The translations under genes and the position numbers were made by a program. Shown here piece by piece: positions 5,089 to 60,276 of a stretch of DNA of 64,000 nucleotides (positions are counted from its first letter, which is position 1; each line of letters starts with the position of its first letter). The notes under the pieces are model-generated. The model was not told where the DNA came from. It saw only the letters and a list, made by a program, of their open reading frames with translations, and did not search any database. This DNA is from a bacterium (GTDB taxonomy: Bacteria; Patescibacteriota; Minisyncoccia; Moranbacterales; UBA1568), in contig JAKACP010000001.1 of NCBI GenBank assembly GCA_021821305.1, positions 330,453 to 394,452 on the forward strand. The letters run 5' to 3'.

Positions 5089-5124
5089 ATGTCTCCATGA
5101 TACTACGAAAGCGTCTTCAATCTA

Positions 5125-8524: not shown

Positions 8525-8600
8525 CAGAAGCCGTTTTTGATGTCGCAAGCGTGGCAATGGAGTCGGTTTTATGAAGAAGGAGGGAGGGATGAGAAGTTTA

Positions 8601-8637
8601 TGCCCCGCAGGGGTAAATCCCTCCCTGCCCACAGAAA

Positions 8638-8643
<6 letters not shown>
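8601..8643 (+). repeat. Duplicate of the tRNA-Tyr 3' end (AATCCCTCCCTGCCCACAGAA) preceded by hairpin GCCCCGCAGGGGT; att-like scar
   Basis: 21-27 bp direct repeat of 8509-8535, placed 80 bp downstream of tRNA-Tyr. Confidence 0.6.
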
Positions 8644-43325: not shown

Positions 43326-44930
43326 CTAGCATCGGTTAGGCATCAAGGAAAGGTGGGTGAGCGGCTGAAACCAGCACACTGCTAACGTGCCAGGGGGTAA
43401 AACCCCTCGAGGGTTCGAATCCCTCCCTTTCCGCCAAAATTGGAAGTCTGCATTGGAACCCGAAATGGGGTCGCGCCGAAGGCGCGACACTAATGCATTC
43501 CCCCCAAAAAATTCTGAATCTGAAAGGGTTTTCCACGCTCCGCGTGGCTCAAAAAGTACGGTTCGATCCTTAATTAAAAAGTTCGAACCGACTTTTTTGA
43601 ACAAATGAGTATTTTCCTCATTTGTTCGGTCGTTTGCCAATTCCATATTGTATTTCAAAAACTTTTCGGTAAGTTCGAACCGATTATTCGCTTTTTGTTC
43701 AAAAGCCGATAATTTCTCTTTGAGAAGCTGTTTTGCGGCAACCAGAGCATTTTTAGCATCACGATATTCTTCTAGTGAAAGTGCGCTCTCCAAATACGCC
43801 GTCATCAGCTTCTCAATTTTGATTTCTAAAAGAGAAATATCGGTTTTCAAGTTATCGGCAAAAAGCGTACTCGATTGGATTTCGGATGATTGGTCTTTTC
43901 TGTTTTCTTCAATCATCCAAGAAAGCCAATCGAGGGGCAAAGAAACTTTTTTGATTTCTTCTTGAATTTGAAAAGTGATGAGCTCCTCGCGGACATACTT
44001 CTGCTCACAAGGATTTTTCCGTTTGGTACATCGCAAATAGTTATGACCTTTTTGTTGCTCGGTGGTAATGAAGCAACCACATTCTCCGCAACGGAAAAAT
44101 CCTCTGTACAAATAATCCTTTAGCCCGCGAGATTTCGGTTTTGACTTTCGGCTCATCACTTCTTGAACGGAATCAAAAAGTTTCTTTGTGATAATTGGTT
44201 CATGCTTTCCCTCAAAAATCTCGCCATTGTAAAGCATTAAACCTGTGTAAATAGGATTTTTGAGAAGTTTTTGATAATTCGACACCGCAAGTTCCTTTCC
44301 GCTTTTTCGCTTCAATCCAAGTGCGTTAAATTTGTCGCGGAGTTCTCGCAAAGTGAAAGACCCAGACGAATATGCCTCAAATGTTTTCTTAATTAAGGGT
44401 GCGATATTTTCATCAACAACAATTTTTCCACCCTTGTTTATATATCCCAACGGAGACATTTGAGGCCATATTCCGTCTTTCACTTTGTTTCTCTTTCCAC
44501 GCTTGATATTTTCCGACAAATTATCGACATAATACTTGGATTGCGAAAAAGCGATTGAGAGCATGAACTTGCCTTGCGGTGTCGGATCAAACCAAAAAGT
44601 TGGGAATTTCATTTCAGAAATTACCCCGGTATCAACGAGGTAGATTATTTTTCCTCCATCTACCGAGTTGCGAGCAAGTCTATCAGGATGCCACGCCAAA
44701 ATACCAGTAGCTTCGCCCGCTTCCATTCTCGCTATCATTTCATTAAACACAGGGCGACCTGGTATTTTGGCGGTCTGCTTTTCGACAAAGACATCTACCA
44801 CTTCCAATTGTTCTTTCAACGCGAGTTCCTTTAATTCACTTAACTGGTCGGCAATACTGCGGACTTGTCTGTCTTTGTCGTCCGTAGACTTGCGAGTATA
44901 GATGAAAAACTTTTTGGTTTGATTATTCAT
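43326..44930 (-). CDS. Large serine recombinase (resolvase domain, recombinase domain, Zn ribbon); the C-terminal ~68 codons read through IR-A and antisense to tRNA-Ser
   Basis: N-terminal YTRKSTDDKDRQVRSIADQ with catalytic Ser; recombinase domain; CGECGC zinc ribbon; the functional C-terminus probably ends near residue ~465. Confidence 0.8.
   Translation of the reverse strand: MNNQTKKFFIYTRKSTDDKDRQVRSIADQLSELKELALKEQLEVVDVFVEKQTAKIPGRPVFNEMIARMEAGEATGILAWHPDRLARNSVDGGKIIYLVDTGVISEMKFPTFWFDPTPQGKFMLSIAFSQSKYYVDNLSENIKRGKRNKVKDGIWPQMSPLGYINKGGKIVVDENIAPLIKKTFEAYSSGSFTLRELRDKFNALGLKRKSGKELAVSNYQKLLKNPIYTGLMLYNGEIFEGKHEPIITKKLFDSVQEVMSRKSKPKSRGLKDYLYRGFFRCGECGCFITTEQQKGHNYLRCTKRKNPCEQKYVREELITFQIQEEIKKVSLPLDWLSWMIEENRKDQSSEIQSSTLFADNLKTDISLLEIKIEKLMTAYLESALSLEEYRDAKNALVAAKQLLKEKLSAFEQKANNRFELTEKFLKYNMELANDRTNEENTHLFKKVGSNFLIKDRTVLFEPRGAWKTLSDSEFFGGNALVSRLRRDPISGSNADFQFWRKGRDSNPRGVLPPGTLAVCWFQPLTHLSLMPNRC
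43347..43436 (+). tRNA. tRNA-Ser(GCT), CCA encoded
   Basis: Acceptor GGAAAGG/CCTTTCC; long variable arm; anticodon loop CTGCTAA. Confidence 0.8.
43431..43550. repeat. IR-A left arm (120 bp), perfect inverted repeat of 44952-45071
   Basis: Sequence comparison; includes CCGCCA from the tRNA-Ser 3' terminus. Confidence 0.8.
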
Positions 44931-44951
44931 AGAATTGTATTGGCAAACGAC

Positions 44952-45071
44952 GAGCCACGCGGAGCGTGGAAAACCCTTTCAGATTCAGAATTTTTTGGGG
45001 GGAATGCATTAGTGTCGCGCCTTCGGCGCGACCCCATTTCGGGTTCCAATGCAGACTTCCAATTTTGGCGG
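44952..45071. repeat. IR-A right arm (120 bp)
   Basis: Reverse complement identical to 43431-43550. Confidence 0.8.
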
Positions 45072-45339
45072 TGTGTATTAGACAACGTTCGAATGTATTT
45101 TGAGCTAAATCCTGACGATGAGCCCTAATCGCACGCGCGGAGCGCGTGGTGACTTGAAACTGCATTGTACGCTCGGATTGCGTGGTGATGCGAACCAAAG
45201 CGCCTCGGACACGCTCGCGGACTCGCGTGTGCAAAGACCAAAAAATTTCCTTGCATTTTTCTCGCGTCTCCTCCCCCCACCCCTCCGCCGCGAAGCGGAA
45301 AAAGAAATGGAAAGGAAATTTTTGGTTTTGCTTCGCCGT
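45068..45339. repeat. IR-B left arm (~272 bp), near-perfect inverted repeat of 47478-47750
   Basis: Sequence comparison (2 differences). Confidence 0.8.
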
Positions 45340-45412
45340 AGTCATACCTATATTGTATTTTATCACACCATTGAGTCAAGACACAACATTGATTATACTC
45401 AAACTAACAAAT

Positions 45413-45619
45413 ATGTCTGATTCATCAAAAAAACTTGCCGTGAATATGAAAAAGATTAGGGCTCGTAAGCATATGTCGCAAGGCGACATATGCCGAGAGC
45501 TTGGCGTTGACCGCGCTTACATCAGCACGATTGAATCGGGGAAACAAAACCCTACACTTTTAACGATTGAAAGAATAGCCAAAGCTCTCGGCGTTTCGGT
45601 TGATGAGTTGTTGAAATGA
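45413..45619 (+). CDS. XRE-family HTH transcriptional regulator
   Basis: HTH_3-like motif (MSQGDICRELGVDRAYISTIESGK); low GC. Confidence 0.65.
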   Translation: MSDSSKKLAVNMKKIRARKHMSQGDICRELGVDRAYISTIESGKQNPTLLTIERIAKALGVSVDELLK

Positions 45620-45740
45620 TATAGAGCAAGACATTCTCAGAACCCACCGATGCTTTACACAGCGATTGAGAAAGTGAGGTGTGGATAACGAATCGTATGT
45701 GTGCTTGCATTATTATATACGAATATGCTAATATACGCAT

Positions 45741-46040
45741 ATGATAGATTTATGCAAAGAAATCGCCCGCATGGGTAGAGGTATCGGCAATGAAAACCGC
45801 TATCGTATTATTGAAACCCTCATGAAGGGCTCCCAAACAGTTGGTGATATTGCTGGGAAAGTCGGCATGCCACAACCGACCGTTTCTCAAAATCTTCGGG
45901 TTTTGAAAGAAGCGGATCTTGTCGTTGACGAACGACGCGGACAAGAAGTGTATTACACGATTAATGTTATGTATATGACAAAACTGCTCAAGCGTTTGGC
46001 CGATGACGTATCAAAGAGCGGTGGCAAAAAGCCACATTAA
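45741..46040 (+). CDS. ArsR/SmtB-family transcriptional regulator
   Basis: Winged HTH; YRIIETL...TVSQNLRVLKEADLV. Confidence 0.7.
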   Translation: MIDLCKEIARMGRGIGNENRYRIIETLMKGSQTVGDIAGKVGMPQPTVSQNLRVLKEADLVVDERRGQEVYYTINVMYMTKLLKRLADDVSKSGGKKPH

Positions 46041-46068
46041 CAATTAAACCAATATTAATCACATCACT

Positions 46069-46710
46069 ATGAAAACAATTATTGATTCTCTCAAGTGGCG
46101 CTATGCTACTTACACATTTGACACCAGTAAAGGAATTTCAGAAAAGGATTTGCATACCGTTCTCGAAGCGGGAAATTTAGCGGCTACCGCTTTCGGCTTA
46201 CAACCATTCGAGTTTGTGGTAGTTAAAGATCAGACCATGAAAGAGTCGCTAGTTCCGCACGCGTACGGACAACAGCATCTCGCAAAAAACTCTGCTTTGG
46301 TGGTACTAGCTATTCGTACTGATCTCGATGAAGCCTATATTACCGAGTACATTGAGCGTATCGGGCGTGTCCGTGGCGTTCCCGTGGAGATGCTTGAAGG
46401 TTTCAAGCAATCAATGCTCGGCGCAATGAGTATGAAAGGAGCTGATGGCAGGAATGCGTGGGCGCAAAAGCAAGCATACATTGCACTCGGCACCATGATG
46501 GCAGCTGCTTCAGAATTACGAATAGATAATCACGGTGCGGAAGGCTTTGACCCCGAGAAGTTCGATGAAATGCTCGGCCTTAAAGCAAAGAATCTTCACG
46601 CCACTGTACTTCTTATGCTCGGCTACCGTACTGATACACCAGATGACAAGGAGAAAATGTTCCAAATCAAGGTCCGCAAGGAGTATGACGATATCGTAAG
46701 TGTTATCTAG
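46069..46710 (+). CDS. NAD(P)H nitroreductase-family protein
   Basis: Nitroreductase fold similarity over the full length. Confidence 0.7.
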   Translation: MKTIIDSLKWRYATYTFDTSKGISEKDLHTVLEAGNLAATAFGLQPFEFVVVKDQTMKESLVPHAYGQQHLAKNSALVVLAIRTDLDEAYITEYIERIGRVRGVPVEMLEGFKQSMLGAMSMKGADGRNAWAQKQAYIALGTMMAAASELRIDNHGAEGFDPEKFDEMLGLKAKNLHATVLLMLGYRTDTPDDKEKMFQIKVRKEYDDIVSVI

Positions 46711-46731
46711 TTACTTACACGAAAACATTCT

Positions 46732-47115
46732 ATGAAAACTTTCTTCAAAACGCTTACGACACAGCAAAAGGTTGGCTATGTGCTCGCTACGCTTCTCTCG
46801 ATTCTTTTGCTTCTACCCGCGACCCTCAAAATCATAAGTTTCCCGATGTTCGTCGAACTCTTTACAGCACACAACATTGGCGAGTTTCTGACCGTTATCG
46901 GCCTTGGCCTCGCAGTTTCGAGTATTCTCTACGCGATACCTCGCACTAAAATGCTCGGCACCCTTCTTTTGTCAGCGTACTTCGGCGGCGCAATCGTCTT
47001 TCACATGACTGCTGACGAGCCGTTTATCATTCAGTCGGTTGTTCTTGTACTGATGTGGCTCTTTGCTTGGCTTCGTGATCCGAATGTATTTCTTCCAAAG
47101 TACTCAGATGAGTAA
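46732..47115 (+). CDS. DoxX-like membrane protein
   Basis: 127 aa, 4 TM helices, DoxX-like pattern. Confidence 0.45.
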   Translation: MKTFFKTLTTQQKVGYVLATLLSILLLLPATLKIISFPMFVELFTAHNIGEFLTVIGLGLAVSSILYAIPRTKMLGTLLLSAYFGGAIVFHMTADEPFIIQSVVLVLMWLFAWLRDPNVFLPKYSDE

Positions 47116-47477
47116 AGAGGTCTTTTTGAAGTTAAGGGAGCCAACCCCCGTCGTTTTATAATTTTCCTCAAAAACGGCGGGGGTTGTTGTGCGCGCACTG
47201 GGTGGGGCAAGCACATACAGATTTGTTTGTGCCTCAGCACAATCCATATTCCTTTGAATCACCACTAAACTCTCTCGAAGCCACCAAGCGAACACACACA
47301 ACACCGAAGCAGCCAGCGCGAGCGAATGCGAGCGGGCTATGCGAAGGCGGTTGTGTGTGGTTCGCGGACGTTAGAGTTACCACCAAACGCGGATACGGAT
47401 GCGCCTCGGTCGCCGTGAGGGTGGAGAAAAGAGCAATCAAAAGTGATAAACTAATAGTGCTTTTTTCGGAGACTGAA

Positions 47478-47750
47478 ACGGCGAAGCAAAACCAAAAATT
47501 TCCTTTCCATTTCTTTTTCCGCTTCGCGGTGGAGGGGGTGGGGGGAGGAGACGCGAGAAAAATGCAAGGAAATTTTTTGGTCTTTGCACACGCGAGTCCG
47601 CGAGCGTGTCCGAGGCGCTTTGGTTCGCATCACCACGCAATCCGAGCGTACAATGCAGTTTCAAGTCACCACGCGCTCCGCGCGTGCGATTAGGGCTCAT
47701 CGTCAGGATTTAGCTCAAAATACATTCGAACGTTGTCTAATACACACCGC
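47478..47750. repeat. IR-B right arm
   Basis: Reverse complement matches 45068-45339. Confidence 0.8.
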
Positions 47751-48211
47751 AGAAGTGAAAGAGGAGCCATTTTGTATGGCTCCTTTTTTGCTTCTATGAT
47801 GAACGCATTCGGAGTTTATGCCCCGAAGGGGTAAATCCCTCCCTTTCCGCATCAAGCTCATAGTATCGAGGGTGACCCGAGAGCCTCGAATGAGCAACAT
47901 AAAACCAAACCGCCGGTAAATGGCGGTTTTATTCTTTCTGATCTATAGATCTTCTTTACTGTATGATCCCTCTCTTTTGACTGTCACGGACAATCTTACT
48001 TTGGTCCCATAAGCTCGAGAAATTTCATGGGGTCTATCGAGAAACCGCCTATACGAACCGAGAGATGGAGGTGAGGGCCGAGAGAATAGCCCGTATTGCC
48101 GCTCTTGGCTACGGGGTCACCTTTTCCCACGTTGTCGCCCGCTTCTACACCGATTTCGGAAAGATGCATGTACATGGTCATGATACCCAATCCATGATCA
48201 ATGATGACGGT
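47747..48211. repeat. 465-bp direct repeat DR-1; includes the att-like copy of the tRNA-Ser 3' end, two terminator hairpins and the last 72 codons of an M23 peptidase gene. Identical to 60277-60741
   Basis: 100% identity at a constant offset of 12,530 bp. Confidence 0.85.
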
Positions 48212-48958
48212 ATTGCCGAAGTTTCTCAGGCTTTGGGCAAGGACCACCTTGCCGGAGTTCATGGCATATACCGACGTTCCCTCCGCTGCTCGAAAATCCG
48301 TGCCTTGATGGCTGAGACTTACGGATCCAGTCTGCCTCTTGTAGCCATAAGTATCGGTAACGGTAAGAGATCCATCAAGCGGTAAGCGGAACTCTCCGCT
48401 CCAGAGTCGTTCCGGGCCTATGATGGTGGTGACAGAGTTGAGGATAGCCGCGTCCCGTGACAAAGTGCTGGTAAGCTCGTGCTCCGCTTGGGGAGTATTG
48501 CCGCCAAGTTGCTCCGGGATGTCGAATTCTTCCGTAGCGACAACCCTTTGGCCGATCTCAAACTCCTCTTCGATTTTCCGGCCGTCCTTGAGGGTGAGGA
48601 CGATCGGATACGAACCGGGCTTTTTATGGAAATCGATTCCTACAAGTGCGGCAACCTTACCCTCATCAGCAAACACGGCAAGCGGCTTGCCATCAAGAGC
48701 AAGCGACTCGATGTTCGAGATATCGCTGATGCCGTCCAGGGTAATCCGCGCGGGCTCTCCCTGGATGAGAGCAGTGGGGAAAACGGAAAGCGATACCGGT
48801 TCCACGGCGGAAACAATGCCGGGTTTTTCTGCCTCCATGGCTTGTGATTCGGATTCTGCTTCAGGCTGGTCTTTTAGCTGTGGCAAGGCAAAGTAGAGAG
48901 CGAGGAATAAGGCTGGTAAAGTGAGCCAAAGGAGTGTTCTCATCCCTGGATTGTACAC
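47996..48958 (-). CDS. M23-family (LytM-like) metallopeptidase, paralog 1, with N-terminal TM anchor
   Basis: HxxxD (IDHGLG) and GNTGYSLGPHLHLSV motifs. Confidence 0.75.
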   Translation of the reverse strand: MYNPGMRTLLWLTLPALFLALYFALPQLKDQPEAESESQAMEAEKPGIVSAVEPVSLSVFPTALIQGEPARITLDGISDISNIESLALDGKPLAVFADEGKVAALVGIDFHKKPGSYPIVLTLKDGRKIEEEFEIGQRVVATEEFDIPEQLGGNTPQAEHELTSTLSRDAAILNSVTTIIGPERLWSGEFRLPLDGSLTVTDTYGYKRQTGSVSLSHQGTDFRAAEGTSVYAMNSGKVVLAQSLRNFGNTVIIDHGLGIMTMYMHLSEIGVEAGDNVGKGDPVAKSGNTGYSLGPHLHLSVRIGGFSIDPMKFLELMGPK

Positions 48959-49056
48959 TTCTCTGGTGGAATCGTGAAGACCGGTACTGCTTGGTCATTT
49001 ACATCAGCTTTTCAGTTGATAGCTTCCGGAAATCGTGCTATCGTGTGAGGGCGCTT

Positions 49057-49476
49057 ATGTCCAAAATAAAGAAAACGTCTCTTTTCGTCTTCGTGCTGGC
49101 CGTGATGCTTTCCACCGGAAGCTCGTGCGCTTTCCCCATGCTTCCGGCCCAAGCTTCTTCGGGGGCGATGCAAATGGGTGATCAAAGCGCTTCAGGCGAG
49201 CAGAGTGAAATCATGGATGGATATGATATGGGGTCGATGGCGCATGCGCCTCTTCCCCAAGAGCATGTGAAAACATGTTCGGCGGACTGCGGGCAGACTG
49301 TCGATGACGCGGTTACGACAAAGAAAGACAAAGAACTTTTGGAGCTTCCTGCTCTTGTTTCACAAGGTATTTTCATGCCCCCGTCGCCTCTCGATGGATC
49401 GGATCTCGAGGCTTTTGAGCGGTCAGAAATCCCGCCTTTAGGGGATGCTCTCCTCACCGTTGCCAAAAAAGAATAG
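49057..49476 (+). CDS. Secreted Met/His-rich small protein (candidate periplasmic copper-binding protein)
   Basis: Signal peptide; MQMGDQ and MDGYDMGSMAH motifs; lies in the copper gene context. Confidence 0.35.
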   Translation: MSKIKKTSLFVFVLAVMLSTGSSCAFPMLPAQASSGAMQMGDQSASGEQSEIMDGYDMGSMAHAPLPQEHVKTCSADCGQTVDDAVTTKKDKELLELPALVSQGIFMPPSPLDGSDLEAFERSEIPPLGDALLTVAKKE

Positions 49477-49618
49477 ATTGATCGAAGTGTCAGAAAGCTG
49501 AGACATTTTATCCTTGTGGATAATACTCTCTCCTTCTGGCATTTTTTGTTTCCGTTTCTTCGTGAGAGAAATGGATTTTAGCAGTCGGATCAAATAGTTA
49601 AGTCTTACATACAACCTT

Positions 49619-51259
49619 ATGGACAAGAAGAAAATAATTGTGGCGATCATAGCCATAGTCATCCTCGGCGCTCTCGCCTGGTATGGGTCGGTCGATCGCC
49701 GGATGAGAGTCGGCACCTCTGAAGAGGGGACGGCGAACCTGAACGCTCCGCCATCCGGAGATATACGGCAGGCTGTTCCGTCGGAAATCGTCGATCTCAA
49801 GGACGGTCAATCGATCGACCTTGCCATCACACCCGTCAAGAAAACGATCGCCGGGCGTACGGTGAAGATGCTCGGATACAACGGCTCCATTCCCGGGCCC
49901 ACCCTCCGTGTTCCGGAGGGTTCGGAGATTACCGTCAACCTGAAGAACGGCGGTGATATCGCCACGTCGCTCCATGCCCATGGAGTGCGGATGGAAAACC
50001 CGTTCGATGGGGTGCCGGGCGTGACTCAAAAGGAGATCGCTCCAGGTGAATCGTTCGCCTACAAGCTCAAGTTCACCGATCCGGGTGTCTTCTGGTATCA
50101 CCCCCATGTGAGAACGGATTACGCGGTCGAGTCAGGGCTCTATGCGAACATCATCGTGACGCCGAAGGATAGCGGCTATTTCCCGCCCGCCAACCGCGAG
50201 GTGCCGCTCATACTCGACGATATAGCGCTCGACAAGGACGGGATGCTTCCGTTCGATGCCAAGGTTGCGGATCATACCCTTATGGGGCGCTTCGGCAATG
50301 TCATGCTCGTGAACGGCGAGACGGACTACAAACTCCAAGCGAAACAAGGCGAGGTGGTGCGTCTCTATCTCACCAATGCGGCCAACACGAGACTCTTCAA
50401 CTTCACTCTTCCCGGAGCGAAGATGAAGCTGGTCGGGGCGGATGTGGGACGCTATGAAAAGGAAACCTTCGTGGAGGGCGTGCTTGTTGCTTCCGGCGAG
50501 CGTCGTGTCGTGGATGTTCTCTTTGAAAAGGCCGGCGAGTACGCGATGAAGCACGAGACTCCTGACAAGGAGTATGCTCTCGGAACGGTGTCCGTTTCCG
50601 CTGAAACCATCAGCCTCTCCTATACCGAAGAGTTTTCAGCGTTGCGGACGAACGCGGCCGTCGTCGATGAGTTGGAAAATCTCATGAATACGTATCTTGC
50701 GAAGAGTCCGGACAAGATCCTGAATCTTTCACTCGATATGGATCAGGAGATGCGTCAGGGTATGCCTATGGGAATGCACTCGATGAACTCGATGGGTGGA
50801 GGCGGCATGGCCATGTCGGATGCGGATATGGGCATGGGCGATGACGGAGACGCGTTGGAATGGGAGGACACGATGGCCGGTATGAACGCCCAGTCCACAT
50901 CGGACATGCTGGAATGGAAGCTCGTGGACGGCATGACGGGCAAGGTGAACGCGGATATCGATGACTGGAACTTCCGGACGGGCGACAAGGTCAAGATCCG
51001 TATCTTCAATGATCCGAAATCCCTGCATCCCATGCAGCACCCGATTCACTTCCATGGACAGCGCCTCATGGTGCTCTCGACGAACGGCGTGAAGAATGAC
51101 AACCCGGCATGGGTCGATACGGCGTTGGTAGCCACAGGCGACACGGTCGACATCCTGCTTGACGCCTCCAATCCCGGCACGTGGGTCGCACATTGTCATA
51201 TCCTGGAGCATGCGGAAAGCGGCATGATGCTCTCATACACCGTGGGAAAGACCGACTAA
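49619..51259 (+). CDS. Multicopper oxidase (CueO/laccase-like) with a Met-rich insert
   Basis: Cu-binding motifs LHAHG, WYHPH and HCHILEHAESGMM; Met-rich segment MRQGMPMGMHSMNSMGGGGMAM. Confidence 0.8.
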   Translation: MDKKKIIVAIIAIVILGALAWYGSVDRRMRVGTSEEGTANLNAPPSGDIRQAVPSEIVDLKDGQSIDLAITPVKKTIAGRTVKMLGYNGSIPGPTLRVPEGSEITVNLKNGGDIATSLHAHGVRMENPFDGVPGVTQKEIAPGESFAYKLKFTDPGVFWYHPHVRTDYAVESGLYANIIVTPKDSGYFPPANREVPLILDDIALDKDGMLPFDAKVADHTLMGRFGNVMLVNGETDYKLQAKQGEVVRLYLTNAANTRLFNFTLPGAKMKLVGADVGRYEKETFVEGVLVASGERRVVDVLFEKAGEYAMKHETPDKEYALGTVSVSAETISLSYTEEFSALRTNAAVVDELENLMNTYLAKSPDKILNLSLDMDQEMRQGMPMGMHSMNSMGGGGMAMSDADMGMGDDGDALEWEDTMAGMNAQSTSDMLEWKLVDGMTGKVNADIDDWNFRTGDKVKIRIFNDPKSLHPMQHPIHFHGQRLMVLSTNGVKNDNPAWVDTALVATGDTVDILLDASNPGTWVAHCHILEHAESGMMLSYTVGKTD

Positions 51260-51290
51260 GCAAATATTCAAATCGATAACGGAGAATCCT

Positions 51291-52121
51291 ATGCAAGATG
51301 AACACAGGCAGGAAAAAGACGAAGCCGGAGATCCGGTAGAGACTCGGGGAAAAGAAGGGGCGTCGGGTCGGGAGACGTGGATCATCGCCGGGGCGATCCT
51401 CTTGGGGAGCCTCATCGTCAGCGGGGGCATACTCTTCTCCCGTGGGACCTTTCAGAAAACATCCGATTCAGGCGCGACTGGAATACTGCAGCCGTCAGAA
51501 AATCCCTCGCCGATCGCGGAGCGGCCGGAGAGGCGGCCCGGCGAATCGGTGAAGGTCTCGACGGATGATGATGCCGTTTTGGGAGACAAGGATGCGCCGA
51601 TCACGCTGATCGAGTTTTCGGACTATGAGTGTCCATTCTGTAAACGCTCGTTCACTGATGTGCTTCCGGAGCTCAAGAAAACATATATCGACACAGGAAA
51701 AGTGAAACTCGTCTTCCGGGATTTCCCCCTGTCCTTCCATGCGAACGCCGGGAAGGAGGCGGAGGCGGCCGAGTGTGCGAGGAGCCTTGGGGATGATGTG
51801 ACGTACTACAAATTCCATGACCAGATCTTCACCAAAACCACTTCGAACGGGACTGGTTTGGCTCTTACGGAATTGCCTGCGATTGCGAAAAACCTTGGTC
51901 TCAACGTGAATCAGTTTCAGCAGTGTTTGGATTCGGGAAAGTTCAAAGACGAAGTAGCCAAGGATATGGCCGACGGGGAGGCGGCCGGTATTTCCGGTAC
52001 GCCATCATGGATTATCGGTGCTTCCAGCAAGGATGGCCAGATTGAGGGGCAGCTTGTCGTGGGAGCCCAGCCTTTCTCCGCGTTCAAGGCTATTATCGAT
52101 GAAAAACTCGGTAACAAGTAA
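51291..52121 (+). CDS. DsbA-family thiol:disulfide oxidoreductase, membrane-anchored
   Basis: CPFC active site in a thioredoxin fold. Confidence 0.7.
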   Translation: MQDEHRQEKDEAGDPVETRGKEGASGRETWIIAGAILLGSLIVSGGILFSRGTFQKTSDSGATGILQPSENPSPIAERPERRPGESVKVSTDDDAVLGDKDAPITLIEFSDYECPFCKRSFTDVLPELKKTYIDTGKVKLVFRDFPLSFHANAGKEAEAAECARSLGDDVTYYKFHDQIFTKTTSNGTGLALTELPAIAKNLGLNVNQFQQCLDSGKFKDEVAKDMADGEAAGISGTPSWIIGASSKDGQIEGQLVVGAQPFSAFKAIIDEKLGNK

Positions 52122-52127
52122 AAGATT

Positions 52128-52631
52128 ATGAGTAAGAAACAGCGAAAAATACCTTCCGCGGCCTGGTGGACTATCGGGTTAACTGTTGTCGTTATCGGGC
52201 TGATCGTGTTCCTTGGAGCAAGGTACTCCGGTCCTTCGAAAACCAATCGAGAGGTGGCTTTGTCGTGTACTACTGATATGGCTACCCGATTCCATATTCA
52301 TCCCAGCCTGGAGATTCGCATCAACGGCGAGAAACAGGTTATTCCTACGAATATCGGAGTCGATGCCAACTGCATGAATGCGCTCCATACCCACGGAACG
52401 AGCGGTGAAATCCATGTCGAGTCGCCGCAAAAACGAGACTTCACCCTTTCCGATTTCTTTGCGGTATGGGGCAAAACATACAGCAAAGATCAGATCCTCG
52501 ATTCCAAGGCTGATGAGAAATACATCATTCGCGAAACCGTAAACGGCCAAGAGGTGGGGGATTACGAAAATACCATCTTGCATGATAAGGACAAGATCGT
52601 TATTTTCTACGAGGAGAGAAATAAGGAGTGA
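52128..52631 (+). CDS. Hypothetical membrane-anchored His-rich protein
   Basis: ORF with TM anchor; HIHP...HTHGTSGEIH. Confidence 0.35.
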   Translation: MSKKQRKIPSAAWWTIGLTVVVIGLIVFLGARYSGPSKTNREVALSCTTDMATRFHIHPSLEIRINGEKQVIPTNIGVDANCMNALHTHGTSGEIHVESPQKRDFTLSDFFAVWGKTYSKDQILDSKADEKYIIRETVNGQEVGDYENTILHDKDKIVIFYEERNKE

Positions 52632-52667
52632 TGCCGCGGATCCGGTCAATGACGAAGGCTACAAGAT

Positions 52668-53213
52668 ATGAAAAACATCTGGTCTCCAAAAACCATTCTT
52701 CCCGCAGTCATGATCGCGGCGCTCTATGTCGTGGTAACCGTGTACCTCATGAATGCGGGGCTGGTGATGGATGCGATGTTCGGAACCCATTCGGCCGGAT
52801 ATAGGCAGAGTATCCTCATCGCGTTGCTTACGGGCATGTGGACGGCCATGAGCGCGCCCAGTCTGTTCCTCCTTGTCGTCGTCGCGATGCTTACCGGACT
52901 CAATCTCATGTTTGTCCTGGAGCGGCTCCGGACGGTCCGGTCTTCCGGGAAGATGCATCTGGCGGTAGGCGGGAGCTCCCTTCTTGGGATAGTGGGGAGC
53001 GGCTGTGCGAGTTGTGGACTGCCGATACTGGCCTTCCTGGGTCTCGGCGGCGCAGCCGCCTCCCTGCCCTTTCGGGGCATGGAGCTTTCCATCCTGACCG
53101 TCGCACTCCTTTCCGTATCCTTGTATATCCTGGTGAAAGGACGCGAACGGCAGGCGGTCTGTGCCGTCGGGACCATGGAATACCAGGATCGACACGTCGT
53201 CATTCCGGAATGA
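52668..53213 (+). CDS. Polytopic membrane protein with a CxxC motif (GSGCASCGLP)
   Basis: ORF with ~5 TM helices. Confidence 0.35.
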   Translation: MKNIWSPKTILPAVMIAALYVVVTVYLMNAGLVMDAMFGTHSAGYRQSILIALLTGMWTAMSAPSLFLLVVVAMLTGLNLMFVLERLRTVRSSGKMHLAVGGSSLLGIVGSGCASCGLPILAFLGLGGAAASLPFRGMELSILTVALLSVSLYILVKGRERQAVCAVGTMEYQDRHVVIPE

Positions 53214-53284
53214 TCTCCGACAGGCATGGAGATGAACGGGGGCAGAAGAATCGAAGTCCAAGAGAAAAGATCTTACCTCATAAC

Positions 53285-53677
53285 ATGAAGAATATGGAAT
53301 ACGGATACAAGCGCAGCGTATCGTTCCCTTTCGCCGATGCGGTCCTGAAGACGAAGGCGGAGCTCTCGAAGGAGGGATTCGGTGTCCTTACCGAGATCGA
53401 TGTGAAGGCGGCATTCAAGGAAAAACTCGGCGTGGAGCATGATGAGTATCTCATTCTCGGCGCATGCAACCCGAAGCTTGCCCAAAGAGCGCTCCAGGCG
53501 GAAAAGGGAATCGGCCTCTTCCTGCCTTGCAATGTCATCGTGTACAGGGAGGAAGGAGAGACAGTGGTCGCGACGATCCTCCCCGCCGCGGCAATGAGCG
53601 TGATCGGGAACCCGGCTTTGGACGAAGTCGCACGGGAAGCGGAGGAGAAACTGAAGAGGGCCGTCGATGCGGTCTGA
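53285..53677 (+). CDS. DUF302-domain protein
   Basis: Full-length DUF302 similarity. Confidence 0.55.
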   Translation: MKNMEYGYKRSVSFPFADAVLKTKAELSKEGFGVLTEIDVKAAFKEKLGVEHDEYLILGACNPKLAQRALQAEKGIGLFLPCNVIVYREEGETVVATILPAAAMSVIGNPALDEVAREAEEKLKRAVDAV

Positions 53678-53691
53678 CTATACGGAATGAT

Positions 53692-54402
53692 ATGGAATAC
53701 ATCTGGTTCATCTGGAGTCTGATATCGGTCGGCATCTGGCTGGCTATCTATCTTTCCCTGGACACGAGGGAGAAAAAGAAAGAAATGCTCATCGTCAGCC
53801 TGTGGACATCGCTCCTGGGCCTCACCGAACCGATTTTCGTTCCTGAATACTGGTCTCCTCCTTCGCTCTTCGATCTGGCCATGAAAACCGGGTTCGATAT
53901 CGAGAGTCTTGTTTTCTCTTTCGCTATCGGCGGCATAGCCGTGAGTCTGTATGAGCGGATCCTGCCGATCCGACATGTTTCCCTCTCAGCCGCAGAACAG
54001 CGCTCCGCCCGTCACGGATTTCATATCTGGGCGCTTCTTTCGGCGCCGGCGGTTTTTATCGTCCTGCTCCTCGCAGCCGATCTGAACCCGATTTACTCGG
54101 CGGTTGTCGCCATGGTTACCGGTGGACTGGCCACGTGGTATTGCCGGCCGGATCTCAAGAAGAAGATGTTCACGAGCGCTTTCATATTTCTTGCCCTCTA
54201 TTTCCTCTATTTTTTCACGCTTATCGCCATGTCGCCGGGCTATGTAGGACAGGTCTGGAATCTCCTGGCGATTTCAGGGATTCTGATCCTTGGTATTCCG
54301 CTCGAGGAGCTCTTGTTCGCGTGGAGTTTCGGGTTCATCTGGTCGAGCGTTTATGAACATGTCACATGGCGAAAATTTAACCAGAGCGCAAATTTATCTT
54401 AA
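53692..54402 (+). CDS. Membrane protein with lycopene-cyclase-domain-like PxEE motifs
   Basis: LTEPIFVPEYW and GIPLEELLFAW repeats. Confidence 0.35.
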   Translation: MEYIWFIWSLISVGIWLAIYLSLDTREKKKEMLIVSLWTSLLGLTEPIFVPEYWSPPSLFDLAMKTGFDIESLVFSFAIGGIAVSLYERILPIRHVSLSAAEQRSARHGFHIWALLSAPAVFIVLLLAADLNPIYSAVVAMVTGGLATWYCRPDLKKKMFTSAFIFLALYFLYFFTLIAMSPGYVGQVWNLLAISGILILGIPLEELLFAWSFGFIWSSVYEHVTWRKFNQSANLS

Positions 54403-54461
54403 GTCTTGTCATGGTATCATTGTATCTTGAGGTTATAAGTATCACCGATTACTAAAATAAT

Positions 54462-55403
54462 ATGTATGAAAAACCACAGGCACAATCTTCTTCTCTCGGA
54501 TCACATACGCCCTCTTTGACAGGCGCTAGGGACGCGCGCGCTCTCAAGATTGCCGGGTGGCTGACCGGAGTATACTTTGTCTTTGAGCTTGGTGTTGGCC
54601 TGTGGACAGGCTCAGTGTCTGTTACTTCTGACGCATTTCATACGTTCTCTGCCGTTGGCGGGGTATTGATTGCGGTCGTGGCGAGCGCCTATGCCAAGCG
54701 AGCGGCAACACCGGTTCAGACATTCGGACTTATACGAGCTGAGGTTGTCGGAGCTTTGTTGAATGGATTATTCCTCTTCGGCATGGCGGGATTTGTTCTT
54801 TGGATGGGGATCATGCGCCTACAAAATCCCATCGATCTTTCAGCGGGTACCATGTTCTTGGTAGCTATCGGAGGCCTTATAACTGAGATAATTTCCATGC
54901 GTCTGATGTGGGCGGGGCAAAAGGAGAACCTGAATATGAAGGGAGCCTTCTGGCATATCATTCAAACATTTGTCGGTAGCATTATCATTATTGTTTCGGC
55001 GCTCGTCATACAATTTACGGGATTTCTCCAAATCGATCCACTCCTTGGTATGGCATTTGGACTCGTATTGTTTTGGGCATCGTGGAAAATTATAAGAGAG
55101 GCTCTGCACATACTTTTAGATAACGTGCCAAAGGGCCTTGATCTCCATGATGTGAAAACTGTCATCGAAAAGATACCGGGGGTAGAAAACATCCATCATT
55201 TGCATGCGTGGGCTTTAACAAGCGGGAAAAATATCGTATCTGCTCACGTACGAATTACGGACATGGCGGAAGGCGTTCGTATTCAGAGGCAGATATACGC
55301 AATACTCACCAACGACTTCAACGTATATTTTTCTACAATACAAGTTGAAACCGAATGTTTAGAGCAAGAGACAGCGCAGGAGATAGATTTTTTAGGTAGG
55401 TAG
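54462..55403 (+). CDS. Cation diffusion facilitator (CzcD-like) metal efflux transporter
   Basis: 6 TM helices plus cytoplasmic domain; CDF signature; low-GC block begins here. Confidence 0.8.
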   Translation: MYEKPQAQSSSLGSHTPSLTGARDARALKIAGWLTGVYFVFELGVGLWTGSVSVTSDAFHTFSAVGGVLIAVVASAYAKRAATPVQTFGLIRAEVVGALLNGLFLFGMAGFVLWMGIMRLQNPIDLSAGTMFLVAIGGLITEIISMRLMWAGQKENLNMKGAFWHIIQTFVGSIIIIVSALVIQFTGFLQIDPLLGMAFGLVLFWASWKIIREALHILLDNVPKGLDLHDVKTVIEKIPGVENIHHLHAWALTSGKNIVSAHVRITDMAEGVRIQRQIYAILTNDFNVYFSTIQVETECLEQETAQEIDFLGR

Positions 55404-55447
55404 CAGATCACGATGATCACTAACCCGATAATAAACGGAACAAGACT

Positions 55448-57649
55448 ATGACTCTATATACTTGCCCCATGCATTCAAAGGTGCAACAAGACAAACCTGG
55501 ATTATGCCCCAAGTGTGGCATGAGACTTGTTAAGGCTGAAACAAAAACAGATCATAGTGCTCACGCTGGTCACGTCATGGGAGAACAGTCCAAAATGGGT
55601 TTCTGGGAGAAATTCAGGATGAGTATGTCCATGACGATGGGGATGGATCATACCGGTCTCGCTGGACGGGAAATGGCTCGCCTCATGGAGATTGACATCC
55701 GAAACAAGTTCTTCTTCGCGTTTATATTGACCATTCCGATCATCCTCTACTCACCCCTGGGCACGGAGTTTCTTGGGCTTAACCTTCCATCCCCATTTCC
55801 GCTACCATGGCTTCTTTTTCTTCTCACCACGCCGGTATTCTTCTATTCGGGTTGGATTTTTCTCTACTCGACATATTTTGCATTGAAAAATAGGACGCTC
55901 AATATGGCCGTACTTATTGCGGTTGGCATCACAGCTGCCTATGGATTCAGTATCTTACTTACCTTGATTGGTAGCGCTGACTCTTACTATGAAGCGGCGG
56001 CTATGCTTATTACGTTTGTTCTCTTCGGTCATTGGATGGAAATGAAGTCTCGCCGTGGAACAACTGATGCGCTGCAGGCACTTTTTAATCTCGTACCACC
56101 TCAAGCCAGAGTCTTCAAAGATGGTAAGGAGATAATGGTTGCAACGAGCGATATACAACTTGGAGACATCATTATTCTTAAGCCGGGAGACAAAGTTCCA
56201 GTTGATGGTGAAATCATTGAAGGCGAGACTGCCATTGACGAATCCCTCGTTACTGGAGAATCGATTCCTACAGCGAAGAAGATCGGGGATCAGGTGATTG
56301 GCGGATCAATCAACACTGCTGGCTCGGTCAAATTTAAGGCAACAAAAATCGGTAAGGATACCGCTCTTGCTCAAATTGTCCGGATGGTTGAGGAGGCGCA
56401 GAACTCAAAAGCCCCTGGACAAAGAATCGCTGACAGATTTGCGAAATATCTGGTCATTGGGGCTATCGGGTCAGGACTTCTCGTTTTTATTATCTGGTAT
56501 TTTATTGTCGGTTCACCATTGCTTTTGGCGCTTTCTTTTGCGATCGCTACGGTTGTCATTGCTTGCCCAGATGCTTTGGGGTTAGCCACTCCGACGGCGG
56601 TAGCGGTCGGAACGGGTCTCGGAGCTAAACATAATATTCTTATCAAAGATGCTCCGACTCTTGAGCAAGTCTCAAAAATTCAAGCCATTGTACTCGACAA
56701 AACAGGCACCCTCACTGACGGAAAGCCGAAAGTAACCGACATAGCTACAGTGGATGGATTTGAGGCAAATGAAGCACTTCGTTTAGTTGGAGCGGCTGAA
56801 GCGAAATCATCTCACCCTTTGGCCGGGGCTGTCCTTGAGGAACTTAAAAAACGAAGCCTGACATTGCCAGAGTCAGTTGATAAATTTGAAAACCTTTCTG
56901 GTTTGGGAGTGAAAGCCATCGTTGATGGGAAAGCTGTGCTCATAGGGACAGTTAAGCTTATGAAAGAAAGTAACATTGCTCTCGGTGAGTTGGAACAAAA
57001 AATCAATGAGTATCTGGAAAGAGGAGAAACGATTATGATTCTCGCGGTTGATGGCACTATCAAGGCAGTAATTGGCGCGACTGATCCCATAAAACCCAAT
57101 GCCATAAAAGCAGTAGAACGTCTGAAGCTACTTGGAATCGAAATCGCCATGATTACCGGTGATAATAAAATGACCGCAGATAAAGTAGCGAGTCAGATTG
57201 GTATAGAAAGAGTGTTTGCAGAAGTGATGCCAGAAGATAAGGCGAGTTATGTCAAAAAGCTCCAGCAGGAAGGAAAATTCACGGCAATGGTTGGCGACGG
57301 TGTCAACGATGCTCCCGCGCTTGCTCAATCGGATGTCGGTATTGCGATTGGTGCGGGCACGGATGTCGCGATTGAGACAGCGAAAGTTGTTCTCATGAAG
57401 TCTGACCCGCTAGACATCCTTCGAGCAATAACTTTGAGCAAGGCGACAGTTCGCAAGATGAAGCAGAATCTTTTCTGGGCGTCCATCTACAATATTCTTG
57501 CCATACCAGTTGCTGGTGGCATTTTGTACCCGAGTTTTGGCATCATGCTCCGTCCGGAATTTGCAGCGCTTTTGATGAGTGTGTCTTCGATCATTGTTGC
57601 AGTAAATGCCGTGCTATTGAAGCGAGTTGAATCAGAACTTAAGGCTTAA
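55448..57649 (+). CDS. copA: Heavy-metal (copper-type) P1B ATPase with an N-terminal Cys-rich metal-binding module; TM6 motif reads CPD
   Basis: DKTGTLT, TGDN and GDGVNDAP motifs; N-terminal CPMH...CPKCGM; IACPDALGLATP. Confidence 0.85.
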   Translation: MTLYTCPMHSKVQQDKPGLCPKCGMRLVKAETKTDHSAHAGHVMGEQSKMGFWEKFRMSMSMTMGMDHTGLAGREMARLMEIDIRNKFFFAFILTIPIILYSPLGTEFLGLNLPSPFPLPWLLFLLTTPVFFYSGWIFLYSTYFALKNRTLNMAVLIAVGITAAYGFSILLTLIGSADSYYEAAAMLITFVLFGHWMEMKSRRGTTDALQALFNLVPPQARVFKDGKEIMVATSDIQLGDIIILKPGDKVPVDGEIIEGETAIDESLVTGESIPTAKKIGDQVIGGSINTAGSVKFKATKIGKDTALAQIVRMVEEAQNSKAPGQRIADRFAKYLVIGAIGSGLLVFIIWYFIVGSPLLLALSFAIATVVIACPDALGLATPTAVAVGTGLGAKHNILIKDAPTLEQVSKIQAIVLDKTGTLTDGKPKVTDIATVDGFEANEALRLVGAAEAKSSHPLAGAVLEELKKRSLTLPESVDKFENLSGLGVKAIVDGKAVLIGTVKLMKESNIALGELEQKINEYLERGETIMILAVDGTIKAVIGATDPIKPNAIKAVERLKLLGIEIAMITGDNKMTADKVASQIGIERVFAEVMPEDKASYVKKLQQEGKFTAMVGDGVNDAPALAQSDVGIAIGAGTDVAIETAKVVLMKSDPLDILRAITLSKATVRKMKQNLFWASIYNILAIPVAGGILYPSFGIMLRPEFAALLMSVSSIIVAVNAVLLKRVESELKA

Positions 57650-57662
57650 CTAGGACAGTGCT

Positions 57663-58250
57663 ATGAAGAAAACTATTGCTATTTCTGTTCTTCTTCTCGC
57701 TCTCATGGAAGGTATTTCCTGGTGGGCTTATAAGTCATGGTCTTCTCAAGGCACTGATGAACCCTCTTGGCCTTCAGAGGAAAAGCAAGTACCAGCGCCT
57801 TTGTCTAATGCGGTAAGTCAACAGCCAATCGAAAAACCCGAAAGTATCCCACCGAGTGACAACCAAACCTCAACTACTCCCGAAACTTCTCCTGCCGATC
57901 TTCTTCCAAAGGGGATGGGTTCCAGCAGCTCAGAAGGCAGTTTCCCGCTACCCAGCACTGAAGTAGTTAATGGAGTGACGGAACGCACTATTCATATGGG
58001 GGTGCGGCAATACGAATGGGACCCGAAAATCATTCGGGCCAAGCAAGGAGAATTAGTGCGCCTCATAATACACAATGCTGATGTAAAGCACGGTATTGCT
58101 ATTCCTGAGCTTGGAGTGAACGAAGACATCTCTCCCGATGGCGCAGTAGTTACCTTTCAGGCAACAAAGAAAGGAACCTTTGAGTTCTTTTGTTCTGTCT
58201 GGTGTGGGGAAGGGCATATGGAAATGACAGCGAAGCTTGTTATAGAATAG
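57663..58250 (+). CDS. Secreted cupredoxin-like (CuA-type) domain protein
   Basis: H...CSVWCGEGHMEM matches the CuA-like Cx3CGx2Hx2M pattern; signal peptide. Confidence 0.6.
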   Translation: MKKTIAISVLLLALMEGISWWAYKSWSSQGTDEPSWPSEEKQVPAPLSNAVSQQPIEKPESIPPSDNQTSTTPETSPADLLPKGMGSSSSEGSFPLPSTEVVNGVTERTIHMGVRQYEWDPKIIRAKQGELVRLIIHNADVKHGIAIPELGVNEDISPDGAVVTFQATKKGTFEFFCSVWCGEGHMEMTAKLVIE

Positions 58251-58292
58251 GAAGCCCCCTATCATTTTTGCCTGTATTCAAGGAGCTTCTAA

Positions 58293-59063: not shown

Positions 59064-59079
59064 GTACCGCCCTGTGAGT

Positions 59080-60057: not shown

Positions 60058-60276
60058 TTCACCTTTGACTATTAAACCAATATATTAGGGAAGGAGAGGA
60101 TAGAGGAGACACAAGGCTGTCTCATTATGATAAAATGAGACATAGCCTGTCCTGTGTCTCATTTGTCTCGTTTTATCCTCAAAACCGCGACCCGAGAGCC
60201 TCAATTCACTCGTCGGCCAAGACCCCCAAGAAATCCCTCAACAGCTTGATTTCTCAAAGTTCTAGACCGATGACGC

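Follow-up and report, generated by a model that had tools for sequence, protein, structure and literature searches.

Large serine recombinases (LSRs) of phages and integrative elements, such as Bxb1, phiC31, A118/LI and SPbeta SprA, recombine attP with attB to give attL and attR through a few common bases, with the integrase gene lying beside the att site, and this junction logic is shared by the locus described here. In archaeal integrases of the SSV1 type (fuselloviruses), attP lies inside the integrase open reading frame (ORF), so that insertion into a tRNA gene interrupts the gene for the integrase itself. The filamentous phiRSM phages of Ralstonia encode a serine recombinase whose attP/attB core, TGGCGGAGAGGGT, is the 3' end of a tRNA-Ser gene, in reverse orientation to int (PMC3816273). 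We analysed a stretch of 64,000 nucleotides (the window) from a bacterium of the Moranbacterales, within the Patescibacteriota (assembly GCA_021821305.1, contig JAKACP010000001.1, positions 330,453 to 394,452 of the forward strand), in which an LSR gene and a set of cargo genes lie next to a tRNA-Ser(GCT) gene, each within its own pair of long inverted repeats. The locus is a small (~4.3 kb) integrative element in its integrated form, which targets the 3' ends of tRNA-Ser genes. We consider it likely that the two repeat pairs are a single attP-region unit of ~388 nt, duplicated in inverted orientation, of which one copy was split by integration, and that the core of this site lies inside the integrase gene. 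The parts of the element, in coordinates of the window, are as follows.

43347-43436, plus strand: tRNA-Ser(GCT) gene (ARAGORN; Rfam tRNA, 49.8 bits), forming the attB-side arm (B), with the terminal bases CCGC(CA) as the predicted crossover core.
43431-43434, plus strand: junction J1, CCGC core, at which the tRNA gene meets the a-arm (putative attL).
43435-43550, plus strand: a-arm, the left arm of inverted repeat A (IR-A) and predicted P' half of the split attP region; its minus strand encodes LSR residues 461-500.
43326-44930, minus strand: LSR as encoded after integration, 534 aa, with native residues 1-500 followed by core plus antisense-tRNA read-through (residues 501-534).
43551-44951, minus strand: unique LSR segment of 1401 nt between the IR-A arms, comprising the LSR body and a 21-nt spacer ahead of the ATG.
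44952-45339, minus strand: intact internal repeat unit of 388 nt, made up of a', the GCGG core (45068-45071) and b'; the putative unrecombined attP region (junction J2).
45066-45128, plus strand: spare LSR 3' end spanning the core, translated as W R / CVLDNVRMYFELNPDDEP stop, the native tail which the integrated gene lacks.
45072-45339, plus strand: b'-arm, the left arm of inverted repeat B (IR-B), 268 nt; its outer 57 nt contain the tail codons and the P-arm, and TTCGAAC is near-invariant.
45340-47477, plus strand: unique cargo segment of 2138 nt with XRE, ArsR, nitroreductase and DoxX genes.
47478-47746, plus strand: b-arm, the right arm of IR-B and predicted P half of the split attP region.
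47747-47750, plus strand: junction J3, CCGC core, at which the b-arm meets the right flank (putative attR).
47751-47850, plus strand: X block, a terminator-like hairpin (47762-47784) followed by a mimic of the tRNA 3' end that closes in a 17-mer.

The order in the window is tRNA / a - LSR - a' / b' - cargo - b / X, where each slash stands for a CCGC core. IR-A (43431-43550 and 44952-45071) is 120 nt long and 100% complementary; a 41-mer taken from it occurs exactly twice in the window, the expectation from shuffled sequences being zero. An earlier note on this DNA had reported IR-B as a second perfect pair of 272 nt. The pair is present and abuts the inner arm of IR-A as described there, but it consists of 216 nt at 100% identity (45068-45283 and 47535-47750) and a remainder of 67 nt with 96% identity, displaced by an indel of 1 nt (45273-45339 and 47478-47544). 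The inner arms of IR-A and IR-B overlap by four nucleotides, GCGG (45068-45071), which are found as CCGC at 43431-43434 and 47747-47750. GC content is 37-49% in the element and 55-61% in the flanks. Other statements of the earlier note were borne out. IR-A, the LSR, the XRE/ArsR/nitroreductase/DoxX cargo and the low GC content are present where it had placed them, and the recombinase ORF indeed has no stop of its own and runs through IR-A and the antisense of the tRNA. Its description of an integrative element at tRNA-Ser with a large serine recombinase agrees with the domains of the protein, the tRNA gene and an empty site in the relative L102, and the outer limits it had drawn are those of the empty site.

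The three junctions, J1 (tRNA/a), J2 (b/a, inverted) and J3 (b/X), have only CCGC in common. Since the arms of J2 are identical to the right arm of J1 and to the left arm of J3, the three junctions stand to each other as attP (P/P') to attL (B/P') and attR (P/B'). Identity between attP and the tRNA gene is confined to CCGC(CA), and we equate the CCGC core with the discriminator and the first C of the CCA end of tRNA-Ser. In its free form the element would be circular, the LSR and cargo segments being kept apart by two copies of the 388-nt b/a unit in inverted orientation. The LSR would recombine one attP copy with the end of tRNA-Ser and split it; the a-arm would then lie beside the tRNA gene as attL (43431-43550), the b-arm would be carried to the far end as attR (47478-47750), and the other attP copy would be left intact in the middle of the element (44952-45339). 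With one copy split and the other intact, the two repeat pairs would abut and share GCGG, as they do. We infer the circle with two attP copies, CCGC as the cleavage region, and the upkeep of the repeats by gene conversion or flip-flop recombination. Att sites of LSRs are short, with a crossover of 2 bp.

Relatives of the element bear on where host DNA ends and the element begins. In a genome scan with one genome per species, at least 284 genomes contained a relative of the LSR, and 80 loci from these were surveyed (individual relatives are given L numbers). Identical a-arms adjoin different tRNA-Ser ends, which differ right up to CCGCCA (L029, L033, L034, L037, L043 and L059), and this places the switch from host to element at the J1 core. 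Near-identical b-arms with CCGC are followed by unrelated right flanks, often by a terminator hairpin. Tandem arrays were found in L011, L086 and L099, where the unit a-LSR-a'/b'-cargo-b/ is repeated with b/a at the unit boundary, as would follow if a second circle had been inserted. L018 and L025 have the LSR segment flanked on both sides by tRNA-Ser genes in inverted (convergent) orientation, and no cargo segment adjoins it; this layout is the expected product of recombination between the internal attP and a second tRNA-Ser, and suggests either chromosomal inversion or cassette exchange through the internal attP. The distance between the core and the sequence TTCGAA is 11 nt in the tRNA arm and 16 nt in the b-arm. 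According to Rutherford and Van Duyne, the motif for the zinc-ribbon domain is reportedly shifted 5 bp outward in attP compared to attB half-sites of LSRs, and the offset seen here appears to match this rule. Comparison of the a-arm and b-arm half-sites by eye revealed no convincing inverted symmetry beyond this tRNA-arm/b-arm offset of TTCGAA.

The profile search that the earlier note had suggested for the recombinase identified Resolvase, Recombinase and Zn_ribbon_recom domains, namely a resolvase catalytic domain (PF00239, E=6e-19, residues 9-154) with the motif YTRKSTDD near the N-terminus, a Recombinase domain (PF07508, E=7e-15, residues 177-261) and a zinc ribbon (PF13408, E=2e-7, residues 274-326). 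Residues ~335-440, a possible counterpart of the coiled-coil motif inserted in the zinc-ribbon domain of LSRs, have a helical, heptad-rich appearance by eye, and the closest solved structures are those of the SPbeta and A118 integrases (E ~1e-6). The a-arm together with the first 57 nt of the b-arm makes up the last 58 codons of the LSR. Translation across the internal repeat copy gives ...FQFW R CVLDNVRMYFELNPDDEP and retains the native stop at 45126-45128; the TGG codon for W is the antisense of the tRNA CCA. The native LSR reconstructed in this way is 518 aa long and is covered to 100% by database proteins of 514-520 aa. The exact protein of the window (P0001) is encoded on an 826-kb contig, and the exact element is also present in the samples ERZ27237524 and SRR13304626. 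With the attP core inside the LSR gene, 18 codons before the stop, integration would exchange the 18-residue tail for a read-through of the antisense tRNA, and the missing stop of the window ORF is due to the replacement of this conserved tail.

We scored the C-termini of 133 close homologues after ...FQFWR. Most belonged to an antisense-tRNA class (at least 80 of the 133), with R/K-x-R-D-S-N-P-R... and a variable length. A conserved tail, [CYS]-[VLI]-L-x-[KE]-V-R-x-[YF]-F-[EG]-x-N-P-[DN]-[DE], was present in 19 proteins with a total length of 514-520 aa, while 18 stopped within four residues of ...FQFWR and six had a third kind of C-terminus, xTRVKYP. The variant b-arm of L001 and L003 encodes CLFEKVRTHFEQNP, with conservative replacements in the tail, and across the family the outer part of the b-arm is far better conserved than the inner part. 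LSRs at least 90% identical to that of the window are either fused to several different tRNA-Ser ends or have an intact tail, which argues for recent movement.

The double repeat is common to the family. The LSR search returned more than 7,500 database proteins, of which the best 120 were 81-94% identical to the LSR of the window, those with names being from Patescibacteria. In the genome scan, LSRs 81-93% identical were present in the at least 284 species genomes, nearly all of them labelled Patescibacteria, and the 80 loci span Paceibacteria, Zambryski-, Uhr-, Nomura-, Kaiser-, Moran-, Levy-, Shapiro-, Komeili- and Liptonbacteria, with a few titles of metagenome-assembled genomes naming other phyla. 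Identity of this degree across classes of the candidate phyla radiation (CPR) indicates recent horizontal spread. An antisense tRNA-Ser was found ~112 nt past the LSR body in 58 of the 80 loci (anticodons gct, tga, gga and cga, and one that ARAGORN called 'act'). An IR-A pair surrounds an LSR segment of 1399-1413 nt in 66 loci, with a median arm of 120 nt; of these 66 pairs, 35 show no mismatch and 48 reach 97% identity or more. On every contig of sufficient length, an IR-B pair of 190-278 nt (97-100% identity) abuts the inner arm of IR-A and encloses 1.5-6.4 kb of cargo. The cargo opens with XRE, ~100 nt from the LSR-proximal IR-B arm and divergent from the LSR (~21 loci; flipped in two). The survey includes chromosome-level records (L049 and L052). 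This conservation argues that the double repeat is a ground plan of the family and not a recent accident; the proposal of the earlier note that it arose by very recent formation or by inversion-duplication is thus not upheld, the plan being conserved in at least 284 species genomes. A description of the family was not found in the literature on serine recombinases of Patescibacteria/CPR or on serine integrases at tRNA-Ser, for which journal coverage was partial, and the family is widespread in CPR and apparently not previously described.

Inverted repeats of this length raise the question of whether the assembly is correct. A collapsed or chimeric repeat, or a hairpin chimera, might be suspected, since the contig is of the metagenome type, assemblers err at perfect repeats, and a perfect direct repeat of ~400 nt nearby (47747 and 60277) could mark a misjoin. 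We give this reading next to no weight. The same architecture recurs in dozens of independent assemblies from several projects and assemblers, in chromosome-level records and in diverged sequences; L002, a 93%-identical copy, retains the same layout; and a conserved protein tail is encoded in the repeat arms. Of two further assemblies, one, with 100% identity to the window, breaks off precisely at 45071 and the other at 43436. Breaks at the ends of the inverted repeats are what short-read assemblers produce at true repeats, and therefore indicate that the repeats are real. The exact nitroreductase was found on 22 contigs from many samples, most of which are ~2.2 kb long and consist of the unique cargo segment with a bit of repeat on each side. 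The suspicion of an artefact is effectively refuted for the element itself; the placement of the region 47747-60680 is less secure.

The extent of the inserted DNA can be read from L102, a close relative that is 96% identical across the upstream 9.7 kb and in which the site is empty. Here tRNA-Ser...CCGC is followed directly by ATCAAGCACATAG, the homologue of 47851 onward (CCGC/ATCAAGC...), so that the inserted DNA in the window is 43435-47850. The 17-mer AATCCCTCCCTTTCCGC occurs at 43418-43434 and 47834-47850, with a third exact copy at 60364-60380, and the earlier note had taken the copy at 47834-47850 for attR. If this 17-bp repeat of the tRNA end were the true crossover, the element would extend over 43435-47850, attP would read X'-17-mer/a and the inner repeats would be internal only. 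Deletion of 43435-47850 does restore the L102 empty site exactly, and a direct repeat of a tRNA 3' end is the classical signature of tRNA islands. We nevertheless regard a crossover in the 17-mer as improbable, because the family comparison places the crossover at CCGC: a tRNA-end repeat beyond the b-arm is present in only about 6 of 18 family loci (one third), and its copies are specific to the host while the arms of the element are constant. Furthermore, the junction that would result equals attL over more than 130 nt and is thus attL-like rather than attP-like, the X block, 17-mer and flank recur at 60277-60680 without an LSR element, and similar blocks follow unoccupied tRNA-Ser genes elsewhere (L018, L035 and L092). 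The 17-mer marks the end of the inserted DNA but is probably not the crossover of the LSR-cargo element. The X block, though within the inserted DNA relative to L102, behaves as a separate module; at 60281-60380 it recurs preceded by a different arm, which we call Z.

Several observations weigh against a duplicated and split attP region. The empty site of L102 is also without the 100-nt X block, and its limits coincide with the 17-mer repeat and not with J3. No circular contig that could represent the free form was found; L099, L106 and L011 are mosaics or arrays with different recombinases. A site of the form tRNA/X, in which the LSR element is gone and the X block kept, was absent from an exact-pattern scan of JGI metagenomes, a collection from which the host itself seems absent. 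Canonical LSRs need sites of only ~50 bp, and a duplication of 388 nt is left unexplained. Equal use of the two attP copies would predict about equal numbers of the two orientations of the LSR segment, but the observed ratio is 58:2, with two further loci having a tRNA gene on both sides; this bias calls for an extra assumption, either selection or re-excision of one form. The half-sites of the right flank (B') are poorly conserved, and the orientation isomers come from short-read assemblies, in which the assembler can choose its path through a repeat. No recombination directionality factor was recognised among the proteins of the element, which besides the LSR are only XRE, ArsR, nitroreductase and DoxX, and such a factor could be encoded elsewhere. 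An ORF of 147 aa in the internal repeat (44923-45366, minus strand) was considered for this role and rejected: similar ORFs are predicted in relatives, but the frame is not conserved, and the alignment is limited to the antisense of the conserved a-arm. The scan of JGI metagenomes also returned no other context of the window b-arm, the host again seeming absent there.

Other origins were rejected. A prophage origin was rejected: IMG/VR gave a single distant and weak match, the LSR family being near-absent from viral contigs, and the identity of the LSR to phage integrases is low, at 24-27% among 50,697 phage records. A pair of nested transposons resembling insertion sequences or miniature inverted-repeat transposable elements was likewise discarded, as there is no DDE or HUH transposase, the flanks of the units are inverted (CCGC / GCGG) and direct target duplications are absent.

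Relatives show both segments in either orientation. L013 and L015 carry the same recombinase at 100% identity, with the cargo in opposite orientations between the IR-B arms. XRE lies at the distal IR-B arm in L088 and L023, in which the cargo is therefore flipped, and in L001 and L003 a cargo of the window's type has its XRE end facing the outer flank. In L098 it is the LSR segment that is reversed (tRNA-Ser, a-arm, 21 nt, ATG), giving an intact gene of 517 aa with its tail; the a-arms of this locus belong to different allelic types, which argues against homologous exchange within the arms and points to an event at the level of the core. One orientation is dominant for each segment (58:2 for the LSR segment and ~21:2 for the cargo segment). 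The arms within an element are often perfect, as against a divergence of up to 20% between elements, and this appears to point to ongoing gene conversion or flip-flop exchange. Promoter-like hexamers for the LSR (45379 to 45352, minus strand) and XRE (45371-45399) are placed back to back, both inside the cargo segment in the 74 nt that separate the b'-arm from XRE, and a similar box is seen in the family consensus. If these sites are real promoters, the whole internal repeat would form the leader of the LSR mRNA, and inversion of the cargo would uncouple the gene from its promoter.

These isomers could be taken to mean, as the earlier note proposed, that two segments are flipped by their own serine recombinase as a phase switch of the hin/gin kind. 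That both inversions exist among relatives is correct, with both cargo orientations present at 100% identity in two samples (L013 and L015) and the LSR segment flipped in L098, and with the LSR promoter-like sites in the cargo segment beside XRE, a cargo flip would separate the LSR from them. Logic of the hin/gin type is not supported, and we judge a phase switch unlikely. The enzyme is an LSR of 518 aa with Recombinase and zinc-ribbon domains and not an invertase of ~190 aa, the repeats of 120-270 nt are 5-10 times longer than hix/gix sites, and the orientations, at 58:2 and ~21:2, are not mixed. In addition, inversion would need attL to pair with attP and attP with attR, combinations that LSRs do not normally accept, and a duplicated attP region accounts for the whole of the repeat unit. 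A different alternative does away with the fixed circle: the LSR segment with its terminal inverted repeats of ~120 nt and the cargo segment with those of ~270 nt would be separate modules, each bounded by opposite CCGC cores, which the LSR joins, swaps and flips in the manner of shufflon or integron cassettes. LSR-only modules between two tRNA-Ser genes (L018 and L025), the occurrence of the same cargo at 98-99% identity with a different tail allele and different flanks (L001 and L003), and mosaic arrays with different b-arms on either side of one LSR (L106 and L031) can be read in this way. So can the alternation of CCGC and GCGG cores along the entire chain, X and terminator blocks included, and the further arm type Z found left of the core at 60277 in the window and in L045. 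But loci overwhelmingly have one LSR segment and one cargo segment, in one order and mostly in one orientation, and LSR-only or cargo-only insertions are rare; the mosaics could equally have arisen by homologous recombination between similar repeats of different elements, and canonical LSRs do not recombine attP with attP or attP with attL. Separate cassettes therefore seem rather doubtful to us, and we favour the duplicated attP region, one copy of which was split on integration.

As to what the duplication might be for, we tentatively suggest that the inverted second copy of the attP region could be a reset device for an integrase that disables itself. Integration would deprive the LSR of its tail and leave the gene and the tRNA gene facing each other head-on, so that the element would be locked in. 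If the 1.4-kb LSR segment then inverted across IR-A, the gene would regain the spare tail and come to lie downstream of the tRNA promoter, and excision would be re-armed; inversion of the cargo across IR-B would bring XRE and the LSR promoter closer to the LSR or carry them away from it. Such a device would explain why the tail-less form is in the majority (58:2), why IR-A is perfect in 35 of 66 pairs and why the flipped locus L098 has an intact gene.

The remaining features of the cargo segment, with domains assigned by Pfam, are listed below.

45413-45619: HTH_3/XRE gene.
45741-46040: ArsR gene.
46069-46710: nitroreductase gene.
46732-47115: DoxX_2 gene.
47142-47186: terminator hairpin after DoxX.

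The end of the cargo segment (47187-47477, ~290 nt) has no ORF matching Pfam, has a GC content of ~51%, which is above that of the rest of the cargo, and contains CA/GT-rich runs. Cargo differs between relatives: L106 (2502-6638) carries a HinfI-type restriction enzyme, two methyltransferases and an AAA ATPase, and L011 (2828-6197) a PEP-utilising enzyme. Within the LSR segment, the upstream spacer (44934-44951) has an inverted match of 18 nt at 89% to a site 79 nt inside the 3' region of the gene (43629-43646), which may be a trace of a formerly longer inverted duplication of the 3' end of the LSR gene. The a-arm contains a GC-rich hairpin (43470-43488) that is coding and yet covaries, three consecutive pairs being compensated by GC/CG/AU swaps in 14-23 of 56 distinct sequences; in an alignment of 59 a-arms, the observed score was reached by none of 500 shuffles. 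A second hairpin, CCACGC-TCC-GCGTGG, lies at the inner end of the a-arm. In the b'-arm, the inner part does not code for protein but forms a leader, within which lies a 19-nt palindrome (45241-45259 and 45305-45323). A search of the repeats, the X block and the comparable blocks of L057, L052 and L045 against Rfam detected no known RNA family besides tRNA.

Blocks that repeat a tRNA end were also found in relatives (L052 ~1750-2030, L077 ~720-1000, L057 ~4900-5160, L040, L058 and L088). They are 150-200 nt long, come immediately after a CCGC, either that of tRNA-Ser or that of the b-arm, and are built of a terminator-like palindrome closed by GCGG together with antisense and sense copies of the 3' terminus of the host's own tRNA-Ser. 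Their middle part is alike between hosts, as in GGTGTACTGAA.CTGTAAG. Some 70 nt past the tRNA-Tyr gene of the window (region 8441-8640), there is a hairpin together with 21 nt that repeat the gene's own 3' end, AATCCCTCCCTGCCCACAGAA (hairpin and repeat, 8526-8635); AGTTTATGCCCCGNAGGGGTAAATCCCTCCCT is common to this downstream repeat region and to the X block (47815-47845). ARAGORN called a 'tRNA-Ser(act)' of 88-90 nt near the occupied tRNA-Ser(gct) in L018, L025, L035, L040, L072 and L092, ACT being an unusual anticodon. In L049, an island with a P-type ATPase lies between tRNA-Ser and the LSR element. A second, distant recombinase in L029 (11305-13062, ~70% nucleotide identity) has IR-A and IR-B pairs of its own and adjoins tRNA-Ala(ggc), and sister subfamilies may thus target other tRNAs.

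To the right of the element, 47747-48150 and 60277-60680 form a direct repeat of ~400 nt with 100% identity, which takes in CCGC, the X block and 17-mer, 145 nt of flanking sequence and an M23 peptidase gene's 3' end. Past it the similarity, at 60-87% across the M23 peptidase paralogues, decays to ~48950 and ~61480. The direct repeat brackets 12.5 kb and could reflect a Campbell-type insertion, gene conversion or a misjoin. Arm Z (60090-60280), which precedes its second copy, shares a block of 17/17 nucleotides, GTGTCTCATTTGTCTC, with L045 (9505-9700), at ~60% identity across 120 nt; in L045 the Z-like sequence left of the core abuts the a-arm and gives the LSR the C-terminus xTRVKYP. Z may be a second P-arm type or a module. 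Between the two copies of the direct repeat, at 49619-59063, lies a metal-handling cluster with genes for a multicopper oxidase, a DsbA-like thioredoxin, a CDF cation-efflux protein, a heavy-metal-binding P-type ATPase, a cupredoxin and a C39-like peptidase; GC content falls to 45-50% at 54-60 kb.

The Patescibacteria/CPR are a large and mostly uncultured part of bacterial diversity, with tiny genomes in which few mobile elements have been described. With a variable cargo, for redox and detoxification functions in the window and for restriction-modification and an AAA ATPase elsewhere, the element family may be a main route of gene exchange in CPR. An LSR that uses tRNA-Ser ends, has its attP core within its own gene and is accompanied by an inverted spare falls outside current models of site choice and directionality in LSRs. 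Compact, and with every tRNA-Ser gene as a conserved landing site, the integrase is also a candidate tool for CPR genetics and genome engineering, and if the idea of a reset device is true, the family would be a ready-made integration tool for CPR bacteria as well.

We know of no system that combines these features, though each has a counterpart. The LSR of the window has the domain set of the phage and integrative LSRs (Bxb1, phiC31, A118/LI and SPbeta SprA). Unlike these, the element targets the end of a tRNA gene and not a protein-coding gene, has its attP core inside the integrase frame and its attP region duplicated in inverted orientation, and no directionality factor was found for it. 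The phiRSM core is the same tRNA end as that read through by the window LSR (TGG CGG ...), but the phiRSM Int is a small enzyme of the resolvase/invertase type on a filamentous phage, whereas that of the window is an LSR; attP and attB are identical over 13 nt in phiRSM and over 4-6 nt in the window element; and phiRSM has no long inverted repeats and has its att site between genes, where that of the window lies inside int. Classical tRNA islands likewise have an intact tRNA gene with an adjoining integrase on one side and, on the other, a directly repeated tRNA 3' end, but they use a tyrosine integrase and an identity segment that covers the 3' part of the tRNA, whereas the window element has a serine recombinase only and shares just CCGC(CA) with the tRNA. 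In Hin, Gin, Cin and Pin systems, a serine recombinase gene also lies within a segment bracketed by inverted repeats, with both orientations found among relatives; the Hin/Gin enzymes, however, are small invertases (~190 aa) with a C-terminal helix-turn-helix, 26-bp sites and an enhancer, in contrast to the LSR of 518 aa, the repeats of 120-270 nt and the strong orientation bias seen here. The yeast 2-micron plasmid and amphimeric genomes resemble the inferred circle in the order inverted repeat, unique segment 1, inverted repeat, unique segment 2, with the recombinase in a unique segment and its target in the repeats. The likeness extends to orientation isomers, the layout proposed for the window element being derived from the integrated form and tandem arrays; the 2-micron plasmid has the tyrosine recombinase FLP and replicates autonomously, whereas the proteins of the window element have no Rep-like domain. 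Integrases of the SSV1 type are tyrosine recombinases whose gene is split into two large parts, whereas the window enzyme is a serine recombinase of which only the last 18 codons are exchanged, and the window element, unlike those of the SSV1 type, keeps an inverted spare of the end that is lost.

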